Below are positions 17,759 to 22,460 of a stretch of 24,417 nt of DNA, piece after piece. A program made the translations under genes and the position numbers. Under the pieces are notes generated by a model, which did no database searches, was not told the origin of the DNA, and saw only the letters and a program-made list of their open reading frames with translations. The DNA is from a virus. The first letter of the stretch is position 1. Every line of letters starts with the position of its first letter. Location of the stretch: UHGV virus genome UHGV-0187105. One strand, written 5' to 3'.

Positions 17759-18219
17759 TCTTCACCCGATGCAGCGCGCTTGCTGCTTTTCCGTAAGCAC
17801 CGCTCACGACGCGCCAGAAAATTGTTTCGTTCTGGCTGGGAGTGGCTTTCACGGAATGCCGCCATCCACACGGTTGCAGCACGACGGTATAAGCCCCTGG
17901 ACTCCAGTTCTTCCGCCTGGCGGGTCAGGCACAAAATCACACGGGGATCGTTAGTGCCGACATAGAAATTGCGCACAGGTCTGGTTTCACGAACTGGTTG
18001 TGGTTCCGGTTCCTGCGCTCTCTCAGTCAGGCGCGGGAAATGTCTGCGTGTATCTCCTTCACAACGGTGAGCCACACGCCCACTCTGACGTAACTTGCTT
18101 GCTGACTGCAGAACTCGCTGCCGTGAGTAACCTGCAAAAGCATCCGCAATGTCTCCGGAAGTACACCCCGGATGGGCTTCAATGAATTTCTGAACGTCAT
18201 TCAACAGACTCATGATCAC
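17725..18219 (-). CDS. Two-domain regulator: N-terminal winged-helix-like region plus C-terminal PerC-like motif
   Basis: C-terminal QAEELESRGLYRRAATVWMAAF resembles the conserved GL(W/Y)RRAA..W core I recall for PerC/Pch-family activators; the N-terminal half looks like a winged-helix domain. Likely start ATG at 18213. Confidence 0.4.
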   Translation of the reverse strand: MIMSLLNDVQKFIEAHPGCTSGDIADAFAGYSRQRVLQSASKLRQSGRVAHRCEGDTRRHFPRLTERAQEPEPQPVRETRPVRNFYVGTNDPRVILCLTRQAEELESRGLYRRAATVWMAAFRESHSQPERNNFLARRERCLRKSSKRAASGEEWYLSGNYVGA

Positions 18220-19157
18220 CCCCTGAATCCTGCCGGGATCTGGCTGTAGTCCACGTTGTCGTAACTGGCTTTGAAGTACGGGTCTTCGCGTTTTTCGGTG
18301 TACGTGCTGACGGACGGCGATAAGCGCAGGGAAAGCTCATCCCATTTTTCCCGCAGCTTCGACGGGCTGAGCACGTTACGGCACCAGAACGGATCGCGAC
18401 TGACGCGGCTGTACATCTCGCAGATTTGTTTATGAGTACGACCATCCTGCACACACATCAGGCGAATTTCGTTTGCCCAGGCTGTCCAGTTCGGTTCTTT
18501 GGGACGAACCACCTCGCCGTCACATTCGGCGGCCTGCTCGTACAGGGCGATGATTTTTTTCCAGAGCCACTGTGCGCAGGTCAAATCATCCTGCGTTCCC
18601 CACTGGCGCTTTTTAGGGCTGAATACAACCGCATCAGGATGGCGAGTTAAAAACTCCTGTTCAGCCGTCTGCGTGTCCGGTTGCGAAGCGTCCGGACGAG
18701 AAGTTTTTTTATCTGACGGATCATGTTTTGATTTTACTGACGGATCCCCGCCAGATTCTGACGGGTGAAAAACCGCTTTTTTGCCAGATTTCGACGCATC
18801 AAATTTTGACGGGTCAGATTTTGATGCGTCAGATTTTGACGGGTCAGAATCTGACAGTTGAGAAAATGCCGCTGCCTGAAGCTTCGCAACGTTAAGCTGA
18901 TAAACATTCGACGCATTGCGGTTACCCTGGCGACGCGCCTTACGCGTTAACCAGCCTTCTGCTTCCAGCCGTGCGATAGCCGTTCTGACGGTACTCATCC
19001 CCGCGCCAATCTGGCGGGCAATGGTTTCAATTGATGGCCAGCACACACCTTCGTCATTACTGAAATCAGCTAGGCGGGCCATAATTGCCACGCTGGATAA
19101 TTTCATGCCTGACGCAGCGCAACCATCCCATACATAGCCGGTTAATTTAGTGCTCAT
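18216..19157 (-). CDS. Replication initiator, O-like (N-terminal HTH; iteron array inside coding sequence)
   Basis: 313 aa at the position of lambda O, after the cro-proximal genes; N-terminal winged-helix-like domain; the central linker SDPSKSDASKSDPSKFDASKSGKK is encoded by tandem 15-bp DNA repeats, as the lambda ori iterons are inside O. Confidence 0.55.
   Translation of the reverse strand: MSTKLTGYVWDGCAASGMKLSSVAIMARLADFSNDEGVCWPSIETIARQIGAGMSTVRTAIARLEAEGWLTRKARRQGNRNASNVYQLNVAKLQAAAFSQLSDSDPSKSDASKSDPSKFDASKSGKKAVFHPSESGGDPSVKSKHDPSDKKTSRPDASQPDTQTAEQEFLTRHPDAVVFSPKKRQWGTQDDLTCAQWLWKKIIALYEQAAECDGEVVRPKEPNWTAWANEIRLMCVQDGRTHKQICEMYSRVSRDPFWCRNVLSPSKLREKWDELSLRLSPSVSTYTEKREDPYFKASYDNVDYSQIPAGFRG
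18713..18855. repeat. Iteron-like tandem direct repeats (candidate origin of replication)
   Basis: At least six degenerate 15-bp units of form TGAYGSRTCAGATTT (e.g. cgacgcatcaaattt, tgacgggtcagattt, tgatgcgtcagattt, tgacgggtcagaatc) in phase with the O-like reading frame; short T-rich tract at 18700-18711. Confidence 0.6.
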
Positions 19158-19166
19158 GACCGACCT

Positions 19167-19505
19167 CTATTTCCCTGAATTTACGACGAAACTGTTCGAG
19201 CGGGCTGAAGCACTCATGCTCATAGCCTTCGCGGAGGTAGATAACCCGTTGTGTTTCCGGTTCCCAACGAATGACTCTGACGGGCACTCCGTAGTGATCT
19301 TTGAACCAGCGGTTAACTTGTCGCAAAGGACTGTCTCCTTCTGCCGGTTGAAATCACCCACAGCCCACTCAGCAAAGCTGTGGGTTACAATTTCCCTGTC
19401 ACCTGGTACATTCACTGCATAGCAATACTCCACCTTCGCTTTTCCACCCGGTACAGGAAGTGCAATCAGTTGCGAGCGACGGTAGTGTGTTGTTAAACTG
19501 TTCAT
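19167..19505 (-). CDS. Hypothetical protein (112 aa)
   Basis: ATGA start/stop overlap with the upstream gene and 10-nt gap to the O-like gene suggest translational coupling in the early-right operon. No family recognised. Confidence 0.45.
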
Positions 19506-20167
19506 GCGTTAGTTTCTCCACAGTCACGACACGCCACGGCGCCCGGAGCTGCACACTCGCGGGCGTCATTACTTTCTGAAATGCAAAAAATTTTGTAGAC
19601 CAGTGCTGCATGCTCCTGCAGCTTCGAAATTGAGAGATACAGCTCGTCGTTAATTGCTGTCTTCTCATGCGGTTCCACCACACCGTCTTCGATTGCCGAA
19701 CGAATCTGTCTGGAATAACTGCCAATCTGTTCAATGACTTCCAGCAGGCGCTGGTTAATATCGGCGTTGTCCACATCCTCGACGTCAGGAAGAGACACAA
19801 AGACGCCATTTGCAGACTGCGCCACAGCGTCAGCAATGAAGTGAGTTCCACCAGCACGTTGCAAAATCATTGCCCATCCCAGCGGGAAAATCTGATCGCC
19901 ATCGGCACGAAGGCGGTTAAATAATGCGTTTTCTGTTACATCCAGCCAGTCAGCTGCTTCAGCGTAACCACCCGGCAACGCTGCGATAGTTTTTCTGACA
20001 GCTTTCACGTACCACTCAGGCTGTTTTTCTACTTTCCAGTGATGCTTACCCACGGTTAGCCTCATCGTTCTGTGGTTTCTGTTAATCGATTTATCCATTA
20101 GATTTTTCATAAAGCTCAGGTTTAAATGGCAACCGTCCGCAAGTTCTATATGCAGCTTCTGCTGCAC
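19502..20167 (-). CDS. Early regulatory protein, CII/YdaT-like by position (family uncertain)
   Basis: 221 aa ORF directly downstream of the cro-like gene; annotated start overlaps cro by 77 nt, so the true start may be an internal Met (20110 or 20098). Confidence 0.4.
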
Positions 20168-20291
20168 GTCCTTTTGGAATTAACTGGCCCGGACGGTTTC
20201 GCCACTGATAAACGGCTTCAGTTGTTATGCCGAAAAAAGCAGCAACTTTCTCAATACTGCCGAAGTAGCTTTCGATATCGTCAGTTGTCAT
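20091..20291 (-). CDS. Cro-like HTH repressor (Cro/YdaS-type)
   Basis: 66 aa; HTH segment VAAFFGITTEAVYQWRNR; divergent from the CI-type repressor across a 97-bp operator region; GGAGG 4 nt upstream of the ATG. Confidence 0.7.
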   Translation of the reverse strand: MTTDDIESYFGSIEKVAAFFGITTEAVYQWRNRPGQLIPKGRAAEAAYRTCGRLPFKPELYEKSNG

Positions 20292-20388: not shown

Positions 20389-21015
20389 ATGGAAACGGTT
20401 GGTCAGCGTATAAAAGCTCTGAGAAGAGTTACCGGAACGTCCCAGAAAGAATTGGGTAAATTTTGTGGAGTAAGCGACGTTGCTGTGGGGTACTGGGAGA
20501 AAGACATCAATACCCCTGGTGGGGAGGCACTTTCGAAATTAGCGAAGTTCTTCAATACGTCAATAGATTACATTCTTTATGGTGCTGAGTTTGAAGGCAA
20601 ACTCGTCACAAACATGCGCAGAGTTCCTGTAATATCGTGGGTTCAGGCTGGGCAGTTTACTGAGTGCAGGGCAGCAGAAGTGTTTAGTGAAGTGGACAAG
20701 TGGGTAGATACATCATTAAAGATTGGTGATAACTCATTTGCATTAGAGGTTAAAGGTGACTCCATGACTAACCCTAATGGCCTCCCAACAATACCAGAAG
20801 GCGCAACAGTGATTGTAGATCCAGATGCAGAACCTCGTCATGGAAAAATAGTCATCGCTCGACTTGATGGAACAAACGAAGCTACAGTTAAAAAATTAGT
20901 CATCGATGGCCCTCAAAAGTTTTTAGTGCCATTAAATCCTCGGTATCCCAACATCCCTATCAATGGTAATTGCCTTATCATTGGTGTAGTCAAAGGAGTT
21001 CAATACGAACTCTAA
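20389..21015 (+). CDS. CI-type phage repressor (N-terminal HTH, C-terminal S24 LexA-like autopeptidase)
   Basis: 208 aa; N-terminal HTH (GTSQKELGKFCGVSDVAVGYWE); C-terminal domain with GDSM serine motif and a downstream Lys (VKKL) consistent with the Ser-Lys dyad of self-cleaving repressors. Confidence 0.85.
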   Translation: METVGQRIKALRRVTGTSQKELGKFCGVSDVAVGYWEKDINTPGGEALSKLAKFFNTSIDYILYGAEFEGKLVTNMRRVPVISWVQAGQFTECRAAEVFSEVDKWVDTSLKIGDNSFALEVKGDSMTNPNGLPTIPEGATVIVDPDAEPRHGKIVIARLDGTNEATVKKLVIDGPQKFLVPLNPRYPNIPINGNCLIIGVVKGVQYEL

Positions 21016-21100
21016 GACCTCTCTTCTCTAACTAAGGCACCGAACTAAGAAAAGTTTGGTGTTTTCTCTTGCCATAATAACTAAGTTAAGTTAGATTTTA
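21016..21100. promoter_or_regulatory. Second cluster of operator-like ACTAAG motifs immediately 3' of the repressor gene
   Basis: taACTAAGg (21030-21037), gaACTAAGaaaAGTTt (21043-21058), taACTAAGttaAGTTag (21079-21094): same core as the cro-proximal sites, two with an AACT-N6-AGTT inverted arrangement. Confidence 0.4.
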
Positions 21101-21221
21101 TATCAAAGATAACGAACAGGCAGGACGCCCACGAAGTAGCCGCCTGGGGCATATGAAGTCCAGGATGATTCGTTGAGTCATGTTGTGCCACCAGGCACTC
21201 ATGTTAAAGCAGGTGTATGAA

Positions 21222-21497
21222 ATGAAAGTCCAGATTTTAAACAATAACTGTGAAGTCGTTTGGTCATACGACATAGCCGCCCCTGTAGATCAGAGCGGCG
21301 ATAGCTGGACCAATGGGAAACATCAGATTATGGCTGGAGTTGTGTTCTCTTTACGCCGTGCTTTGGAACAGGCTGAAGTATTTCCATCAGACCCTGAATG
21401 GAAATGGCCTTTTTCTATTTGTCCAAATTCGGAGAGCACATTTCAGAAAATTGGTCAGAAAGTCGCACTCGAAGAGCATCAGCCAACTGTTTCCTGA
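21222..21497 (+). CDS. Hypothetical protein at the rex-equivalent position downstream of the repressor gene
   Basis: Track ORF 21180..21497; in-frame ATG at 21222 has AGGTG 6 nt upstream and is the likely start (91 aa). 3' end overlaps a minus-strand ORF by 83 nt. Confidence 0.4.
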   Translation: MKVQILNNNCEVVWSYDIAAPVDQSGDSWTNGKHQIMAGVVFSLRRALEQAEVFPSDPEWKWPFSICPNSESTFQKIGQKVALEEHQPTVS

Positions 21498-21660
21498 TTT
21501 TTTCAGGTAACTCGTCGGCATCGCAGAAACAACAACGCTCGATCATGTTGAAAGCCGATTCGTAGAACTGTTTCTGCTGAGTGTCGCTGAGACAGGAAAA
21601 GAGCGACGTTACGATGATTTTATTAATTGCATTATCAAGTTCTTTTTCATCAAAAGTCAT
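21415..21660 (-). CDS. Hypothetical acidic 81 aa protein, antisense-overlapping the previous ORF
   Basis: ATG at 21660 preceded by AAGGAAAA about 8 nt upstream; balanced protein-like composition; transcribed toward the repressor gene. Confidence 0.4.
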   Translation of the reverse strand: MTFDEKELDNAINKIIVTSLFSCLSDTQQKQFYESAFNMIERCCFCDADELPEKIRKQLADALRVRLSDQFSEMCSPNLDK

Positions 21661-21779
21661 TTGATTTTCCTTTTATGTATACGGGCTTAAAAGGATACCA
21701 CCGAGCCTGAAGTGGTGAAAAGACAGGCACATAACAGCTAAGTATTTTCAACCAGAGAGAATCCTTAGCGTTGTGGTGA

Positions 21780-22090
21780 ATGCGGCTCAGCGCACGCGGG
21801 TTAAGGTTGAGGCTGACAGTCGACCTTCTGTGGATACCCACCCGCCTGGTGTGCAACCTTCGCCAGGCACCGGGAGGCACCCGGCACCACAACTTTATGC
21901 TGTGTGTAGTCCTGGCGGTACCAGTTTGTACCCTTGCTTCCGGCTGGTACCGTCCTTTTTACAAAACAGAGAAGAGCATCACCGGACGACGGGCTCATAA
22001 CCCAATCCATCCGGGCGGCAGTCACCGCAGGTGTTCTTCTCTGTTTTGTGGAGAAACTAACCGACCTTGCAGGGTCGATATGATGAGGAG
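21780..22090 (+). promoter_or_regulatory. GC-rich, hairpin-dense non-coding leader of the early-left operon (candidate cis-acting antitermination or attenuator RNA)
   Basis: No credible ORF; successive hairpins (tcagc...gctga 21786-21815; gcctgg...ccaggc; ccggg-aggca-cccgg), an internal terminator-like hairpin, then a 17/18-bp long-range stem acaaaacagagaagagca (21961-21978) / tgttcttctctgttttgt (22032-22049) just before the RBS of the first gene. Confidence 0.35.
21916..21960 (+). terminator. Terminator-like hairpin plus T-run inside the leader
   Basis: 9-bp stem cggtaccag / ctggtaccg with a 19-nt loop followed by tccttttt on the plus strand. Confidence 0.4.
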
Positions 22091-22097
22091 CAGCAAA

Positions 22098-22460
22098 ATG
22101 GCTAGCGAACGCAGTACTGATGTGCAGGCATTTATCGGGGAGCTGGACGGCGGCGTATTTGAAACCAAAATCGGCGCAGTTCTCAGTGAAGTCGCTTCCG
22201 GTGTGATGAACACGAAAACCAAAGGTAAGGTCTCACTCAACCTGGAAATCGAACCATTTGATGAAAACCGTGTGAAAATCAAACACAAACTCTCATATGT
22301 TCGCCCGACTAACCGCGGGAAAATTTCCGAAGAAGACACCACCGAAACGCCGATGTATGTCAATCGCGGTGGTCGCCTGACTATTCTGCAGGAAGACCAG
22401 GGACAATTACTGACTCTTGCCGGTGAACCTGACGGAAAACTCCGCGCAGCAGGTCATTAA
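22098..22460 (+). CDS. Hypothetical early protein (first gene after the leader)
   Basis: ATG at 22098 with GAGGAG about 9 nt upstream; the upstream part of track ORF 21780..22460 reads as translated non-coding sequence. Confidence 0.55.
   Translation: MASERSTDVQAFIGELDGGVFETKIGAVLSEVASGVMNTKTKGKVSLNLEIEPFDENRVKIKHKLSYVRPTNRGKISEEDTTETPMYVNRGGRLTILQEDQGQLLTLAGEPDGKLRAAGH

Follow-up and report, generated by a model that had tools for sequence, protein, structure and literature searches.

A convergent, overlapping gene pair at the start of the early-left operon of lambdoid prophages, probably arranged as an excludon-like module

Two overlapping reading frames beside a prophage repressor gene

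The DNA analysed here (the window) is the 24,417-nucleotide (nt) stretch of the virus genome UHGV-0187105, which represents the early region of a lambdoid (SfV/e14-like) prophage. Next to its repressor gene lie two small open reading frames (ORFs) on opposite strands, termed here the plus gene and the minus gene, which converge and overlap tail to tail. A first-pass annotation, made from the sequence alone, had reported both ORFs, each with a ribosome-binding site (RBS), and an overlap of 83 nt; all of these were found exactly as described. The features of the pair are as follows:

21222–21497, plus strand: plus gene, 91 amino acids (aa); family phrog_3195; SfV orf33; RefSeq WP_021563905.1
21415–21660, minus strand: minus gene, 81 aa; family phrog_3311
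21439–21473, both strands: dual-coding core of 35 nt, with plus residues 73–84 and minus residues 63–74 conserved

The overlap occupies positions 21415–21497 and is longer, at 110–173 nt, in the diverged lineages described below. In its longest form the plus ORF starts at 21180, and the SfV annotation places the start at 21201. The RBS, AGGTG at 21211–21215, lies 6 nt ahead of an ATG at 21222. Sequence comparison identifies 21222 as the true start, because in all lineages the protein begins with MKV(Q/L)(I/V)(L/I) after a Shine–Dalgarno motif, and the sequence further upstream is unrelated between lineages. The RBS region of the minus ORF reads AAGGAAAA, the reverse complement of 21665–21672, and the AAGGAAA motif ahead of its ATG is kept in all lineages.

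Both proteins have full-length matches among the PHROG families, the plus protein to phrog_3195 (E = 3.8e-65) and the minus protein to phrog_3311 (E = 1.2e-55), and both families are labelled 'unknown function'. Sequence searches of Pfam, NCBIfam, PADLOC and PDB gave no match for either protein or for their diverged homologues, which bears out the earlier statement that neither ORF belongs to a recognisable family. Both proteins are small, acidic (pI 4.6–5.0) and soluble, and have no hydrophobic segment (maximum 19-residue hydropathy ≤0.9). A CCxC motif in the minus protein was considered as a metal-binding site and rejected, as just one cysteine is conserved across the family. A profile search of the genome contigs with the minus protein alignment found no relatives, and a literature search on SfV orf33 returned nothing relevant.

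Taken alone, the presence of two such ORFs is not beyond chance, because the window contains dozens of spurious ORFs of comparable length; it is the comparative data that give the pair its significance. Existing annotation is also one-sided. The SfV record contains the plus gene and lacks the minus gene, and in the two RefSeq genomes inspected (annotated by PGAP) the plus gene is annotated and the minus gene is either omitted or shortened to a 49-aa fragment. Both the frequency of such lengths and the annotation of the plus ORF only would fit an explanation in which one member of the pair is an open antisense frame that yields no protein.

Coding constraint in both frames across five lineages

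Protein database matches to either ORF were mostly near-identical E. coli sequences or frameshifted fragments. We compared five diverged lineages (A–E), which share pairwise nucleotide identities of 56–76%:

Lineage A: the type found in the window; phage SfV and hundreds of E. coli prophages
Lineage B: loci L003 and L174
Lineage C, with sub-variants F and G: loci L253, L264 and L267
Lineage D: locus L257, a different phage type; pair near holin and lysozyme genes, a Fic/Phd pair and an isrK-C4-Bro module, with no adjoining repressor gene
Lineage E: locus L262, Salmonella; gene order repressor, HSDR_N-domain gene, pair, kilR, gam

At a coverage of at least 80%, the cassette was detected in 404 of 5426 complete E. 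coli genomes (~7%), and it is also present in Shigella phage SfV and in Salmonella. Both ORFs are intact in all five lineages, and the distance from the plus ATG to the minus ATG is always exactly 439 nt, with zero indels. Homologues of the plus protein share 50–68% identity in lineages B–G, and those of the minus protein share 38–62%.

A six-frame substitution analysis of four lineages, in which the ratio of non-synonymous to synonymous change (pN/pS) and the number of stop codons were recorded for each frame, separated the cassette into two single-coding parts. Across nt 1–192 solely the plus frame looks coding (pN/pS 0.32, 0 stops), and across nt 253–438 solely the minus frame does (pN/pS 0.35, 0 stops). 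The remaining frames are interrupted by 5–23 stops per frame in the single-coding parts and by 1–6 in the overlap. Mean pairwise divergence by codon position, calculated over the five lineages, was as follows:

Plus-only part, plus frame: positions 1/2/3, 0.33/0.17/0.54; overall 0.34
Minus-only part, minus frame: positions 1/2/3, 0.32/0.19/0.58; overall 0.36
Core, nt 218–252 (window 21439–21473), plus frame: positions 1/2/3, 0.27/0.25/0.20; overall 0.24

In the 35-nt core, divergence is suppressed at every codon position, which indicates that this segment is under simultaneous constraint in both frames, i.e. that it is truly dual-coding. Among 39 haplotypes of allele A, none of the 43 segregating sites falls inside the core. 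Beyond plus residue 84 the divergence pattern is purely that of the minus frame, and the position of the plus stop codon drifts, yielding proteins of 91, 93, 107 or 122 aa with a tail that is not conserved. On this basis, the functional plus protein consists of residues 1–84 (21222–21473), and its tail is an unconstrained read-through into the antisense of the minus gene.

Judged by their substitution patterns, both ORFs are real protein-coding genes. The first-pass annotation had allowed that one of them might be spurious and had proposed codon-level conservation among relatives as a check; both frames proved to be open and conserved. Despite the one-sided annotation and the abundance of chance ORFs, a spurious member is very improbable: each ORF shows a coding pattern where it is the sole ORF, all other frames contain stops, the RBSs are conserved, and the minus protein family has diverged members (38–58% identity), some of them in loci that lack the plus gene.

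The pair is co-inherited with fixed geometry as a convergent module of enterobacterial temperate phages. Every homologue of the plus gene inspected has a minus partner, and the plus gene was never found alone. The earlier suggestion of a sense/antisense pair thus holds in so far as the two genes are coupled and inherited together. Its second part, a toxin–antitoxin or exclusion function, found no positive evidence, given the lack of a family match, the lack of a hydrophobic segment and the convergent layout.

Co-inheritance might also arise if two functionally unrelated accessory genes had settled in a hot spot of cassette exchange, their overlap reflecting genome compaction and carrying no regulatory meaning. 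The same slot indeed holds other, unrelated convergent pairs, with overlaps of 63 nt (e14 ymfJ/ymfI), 29 nt (phage 689R6) and 32 nt (a Qin-like prophage), and the drifting stop and unconstrained tail of the plus gene would agree with such an origin. However, the start-to-start distance has survived without an indel at 56–76% identity, the pair has moved as a unit into the context of lineage D, and the dual-coding core is kept by selection in both frames. Moreover, that unrelated cassettes repeatedly show a convergent layout suggests that the layout itself is selected. We therefore regard an association without functional meaning as unlikely.

Transcriptional layout of the locus and the proposed excludon

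To place the pair within the transcriptional map of the prophage, the following features of the window are needed:

18216–19157, minus strand: O-like replication gene
19502–20167, minus strand: CII-like gene
20091–20291, minus strand: P22 Cro-like gene
20389–21015, plus strand: cI-type repressor gene, HTH_3 and Peptidase_S24 domains (Pfam); context, outside the pair
21034–21073, plus strand: intrinsic terminator of the cI transcript, predicted by folding; hairpin 21034–21065, followed by UUUUCUCUU
21030–21097, plus strand: OL-like operator copies and pL-like promoter; repeat family D1/D2 common to the cro–cI intergenic region
21069–21097, plus strand: pL-like, sigma-70-like promoter from a promoter scan, of putative activity; TTGCCA 21069–21074, 17-nt spacer, TAGATT 21092–21097
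21104–21221, plus strand: predicted 5′ leader of the early-left operon, conserved from 21111 in many phages with other immunities
21692–21721, minus strand: promoter of the minus gene, predicted by sequence comparison; -35 TTTTCA 21716–21721, 18-nt spacer, -10 TATCCT 21692–21697

The repressor protein is identical to one labelled repressor cI in phage 689R6. The word AACTAAG, a candidate operator element, has five copies in the 24-kb window, all on the plus strand: two in the cro–cI intergenic region (20302 and 20351) and three directly 3′ of the cI stop codon (21030, 21043 and 21079), with none beyond these two regions. The terminator hairpin has a folding free energy (dG) of -15.1 kcal/mol and a z-score (z) of -3.5, and the SfV record has an annotated terminator at the equivalent relative place. 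Because the terminator, the operator words and the promoter-like site all precede the ORFs, OL/pL is placed directly after cI. By its position the plus gene would be the first gene of the early-left operon, where lambda has N, and the minus gene would lie antisense inside the pL operon.

In phage lambda, the rexAB genes share a transcript with cI and are situated between it and OL/pL. The first-pass annotation had assigned the two ORFs to the equivalent slot. The likeness extends to accessory genes that lie beside the repressor gene and are proposed to be active in the lysogen, but the assignment fails, since the cI terminator, three of the five AACTAAG words and the pL-like promoter separate cI from the ORFs. 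Neither protein resembles the Rex families (Pfam, PADLOC).

Phage SfV, which has a different repressor and immunity, is 99% identical to the window starting at 21111, the point at which a module boundary would be expected, just 3′ of the predicted pL start. Dozens of phages with different immunities match the leader at 21111–21220. Its fold is unexceptional (z -1.0), and in lineage C (L253) it is located after the pair and not before it, so that the pair can insert on either side.

Several observations suggest that the minus gene is an autonomous, moron-like unit with a strong RBS and its own conserved, predicted promoter of the sigma-70 type. The motif TTT(T)AAC/TTTTCA-17/18-TA[TAC]C[CT]T is present in 12 of the 14 genes examined and ends 31–33 nt ahead of the ATG; the other two (lineage E and e14 ymfI) have near-variants outside the strict promoter pattern. 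Its carriers comprise the five pair lineages (E as a near-variant), two stand-alone homologues (L256 and L260) and unrelated minus-strand ORFs that occupy the same slot in SfII, e14 (again as a near-variant) and Qin-like prophages. Between lineage A and B1 the promoter block is 100% identical, against ~67% in the adjoining coding DNA. The two stand-alone homologues are 39–41% identical to the minus protein and lie antisense to lytic operons, that of L256 between the Q antiterminator gene and a holin gene. Both have hairpin terminators on either side, as is classic for morons. In all contexts, including the unrelated surroundings of lineage D, the plus gene is oriented with the surrounding lytic operon and the minus gene against it.

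The 18-nt spacer of the predicted minus promoter contains an ACCAC/GTGGT inverted repeat. This hairpin was rejected as a terminator: its z is ~0, a T-run precedes it on the minus strand, and the stem is absent from stand-alone homologues that retain the promoter hexamers, which argues against a terminator role. A hairpin at 21116–21132, considered as a minus-strand terminator, found no support, as it is not stable (z = 0).

The arrangement most likely represents an uncharacterised convergent pair of a moron and an early gene, wired as an excludon and belonging to an already known kind of arrangement. Morons are units of promoter, gene and terminator, as in HK97-like phages. The pair resembles them in its promoter-like motif upstream of the minus gene, in the terminators that flank the stand-alone homologues (and these only), and in its variable presence among near-identical phages: SfV, 720R4 and SKA5 carry the cassette, and 689R6, SfII and SfIV hold other cassettes between conserved flanks. 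It differs from them in that the paired minus gene has no terminator 3′ of it and instead overlaps its partner in the lytic operon. With excludons, i.e. opposite-strand neighbours with overlapping transcripts, the pair shares convergent overlapping coding regions, complementary transcripts and predicted opposite expression states. The mRNAs must be complementary because the coding regions overlap, by the lengths given above, in every lineage; unlike other excludons, the overlap here includes a conserved 35 nt that codes in both directions.

We infer promoter activity, expression timing, antisense coupling and a functional link between the two proteins, in the following scheme. In the lysogen pL would be repressed and the plus gene silent, and the minus gene would most likely be expressed, transcribed against the pL operon. 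Its transcript would run antisense through the plus gene towards pL and could thereby damp leaky early expression before induction. Upon induction the plus gene would be switched on by pL transcripts, which would then cross the whole minus gene and its promoter and silence it through collision (transcriptional interference) and duplex RNA. Because the two coding regions overlap, and because transcripts from pL must traverse the minus gene and its promoter, expression is expected to be mutually exclusive. The minus protein would be an accessory factor of the prophage state, and the plus protein an early lytic factor that possibly counteracts it. Taken together, we give a probability of roughly 0.6 to the pair being an excludon-like lysogen/lytic module, in which an early-left plus gene and an antisense, moron-like minus gene are expressed in a mutually exclusive manner.

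Several points weigh against this interpretation. The independent lineages available number only five. The hexamers of the predicted minus promoter are weak, with 8 of 12 positions matching, and were missed by a consensus promoter scan; a search for a terminator of the paired minus transcript found none. AlphaFold models of the minus protein (three helices, pLDDT 58) and of the plus protein (a beta-hairpin and helices, pLDDT 53) are both of low confidence, and a Foldseek comparison of both models with the PDB gave no match below E = 2. Finally, support from expression data comes only from the non-homologous e14 pair ymfJ/ymfI.

Known convergent pairs place the module in a wider context. SieB of lambda, P22 and Rac is a membrane protein of 160–190 aa. 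Rac sieB is lysogen-expressed and lies antisense within the early-left operon, near kil, and in Salmonella lineage E the pair described here likewise lies directly ahead of kilR and gam. Rac ydaF/sieB shares with our pair the logic of a gene antisense within the pL operon, and is itself a convergent pair in K-12 RNA-seq data. The minus protein differs from SieB in its size (74–81 aa), its acidity and its lack of a hydrophobic segment, and no homology or family match between them was detected.

The closest analogue is ymfJ/ymfI of prophage e14 in K-12. As in the window, that pair occupies the slot directly after the S24 repressor gene (ymfK/cohE), its plus gene converges with an overlapping minus gene (by 63 nt), and the same conserved block lies upstream of the minus gene, followed by an STnc100/DicF-like element. 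The difference lies in the proteins, neither of which is similar in sequence to YmfJ or YmfI; they belong to other PHROG families. The window's cassette is also present in E. coli O157:H7 PV15-279, behind an e14-type ymfK and at the place where K-12 e14 has ymfJ/ymfI. A list of convergent excludons drawn from K-12 RNA-seq includes both ymfI-ymfJ and sieB-ydaF (PMC12288877). In the late SOS response, ymfJ was upregulated by a log2 of 4.8 (~28-fold) together with intE, and the YmfJ protein was detected (PMC11002266).

A different view of the pair, in which the earlier toxin–antitoxin or exclusion idea survives, is that of a toxin and its antidote, or of exclusion and escape, in which a lysogen-expressed minus protein blocks phage growth or a host process and the early plus protein neutralises it. 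Strict co-inheritance with rigid geometry in five lineages and two genomic contexts would suit such a pair, as would an orientation that predicts opposite expression timing. The plus gene is never seen without the minus gene, which does occur alone, and this allows the idea that the plus protein acts on or with the minus protein. A second cassette type (SfII and the Qin-like L172) likewise shows plus and minus genes that diverge together. Yet neither protein has a match in PADLOC, Pfam, NCBIfam or PDB, or a membrane segment or nuclease-type signature; protein toxin–antitoxin pairs are normally co-transcribed and not convergent; and the stand-alone homologues argue against an intrinsic toxicity of the minus protein to its own phage or host. 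We consider such a pair doubtful.

The two established types of toxin–antitoxin system that were considered do not fit. Against type II, the genes are convergent with a 3′ overlap and not co-directional, and belong to no known toxin or antitoxin family. Against type I (hok/sok-like), there is no hydrophobic toxin and both strands encode conserved proteins; an Rfam search of the region gave no sok-type RNA. Still more speculative, and decidedly improbable, is a version in which the minus protein, expressed in the lysogen, blocks a step of phage growth (defence or exclusion) or a host process, the plus protein is its dedicated antagonist, and the dual-coding overlap keeps the two apart. If true, the pair would be a previously unrecognised two-protein prophage switch, analogous to a toxin–antidote system but convergent and wired through antisense.

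For the excludon-like module, the unusual features are its rigid geometry and, on the comparative evidence, a genuinely dual-coding 35-nt core. The pair is a clean natural case of a short antiparallel stretch that codes both ways and is selected in both frames, and it offers a compact system for studying excludon-type control at prophage induction. As the inspected annotations (RefSeq and SfV) lack the minus gene, a conserved prophage protein has been overlooked. More broadly, N-less lambdoid prophages of the e14, Qin, SfV and SfII types repeatedly have, where their early-left operon begins, a lytic gene and a convergent antisense gene behind one shared promoter block. This recurrence marks a hot spot in which lysogen-expressed accessory genes could be mined.

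Cassette exchange and neighbouring elements

The hot spot corresponds to the start of the early-left operon (~21220–21700, compared with L002, L009, L170 and L172). The same conserved flanks enclose unrelated pairs of a plus and a minus gene, convergent and overlapping, in 689R6, which has the window's repressor, and in phages with other repressors. In both of their genes, the cassettes of the SfII and Qin-like type show distant homology to each other (~30–34% identity). In SfII (L009 1501–1548), the first 14 codons of the window's plus gene are retained (13 identical; MKVQILNNNCEVVWA), followed by a stop codon and then an unrelated cassette. A 35% tblastn match of SfII to the plus ORF was accordingly rejected as a diverged homologue and reflects a recombination scar or junction inside the plus gene.

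Between the start of the minus ORF and the 5′ end of a neighbouring small RNA (sRNA) lies a non-coding block of ~49 nt (21692–21740; L170 3501–3549). It is conserved in e14 (K-12, 98% identity), SfII, 689R6, the Qin-like prophage and L003, whichever minus ORF adjoins it, and probably contains two promoters, back to back, one serving the antisense gene and the other the sRNA. The sRNA itself is the following feature:

21740–21962, plus strand: STnc100/DicF-like prophage sRNA; full-length match to Rfam RF02076, 43.1 bits (gathering score 47), E = 5e-8

Its terminator consists of a hairpin at 21914–21954 followed by CUUUUU (dG -23.8, z -3.6). The 3′ end resembles DicF, and in a Qin-like locus the aligned position is occupied by a true DicF. 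The sRNA was considered as a part of the module and rejected, as no such match occurs in the 6-kb loci of lineages C and D. In EDL933, 11 STnc100 copies are transcribed without induction (PMC5331693), and a 2026 preprint links STnc100 to PasD.

In K-12 e14, the ymfH coding sequence (L170 3582–3893) overlaps the STnc100/DicF-like match (L170 3549–3770; 29 and 28.5 bits). The equivalent GC-rich stretch of the window (21773–22000 and 21780–22460) contains long, implausible ORFs on both strands, one of them fused in frame to yfdP. It may be that ymfH was wrongly annotated as a protein gene and is in fact an RNA region.

A long, very stable hairpin (21956–22054, plus strand) with an outer stem of 25 bp lies between the sRNA terminator and a yfdP-like gene and is conserved in e14, SfII and 689R6 (dG -59.7 kcal/mol for 21955–22085, z -7.3). 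Possible roles are that of a site for RNase III processing or of a structure that controls transcription in the early-left operon. In lineage E (Salmonella), the gene between the repressor gene and the pair (L262 1052–2206) encodes a protein of 384 aa with a restriction-endonuclease-like domain (HSDR_N), and is a candidate defence moron at a true rex-like position.

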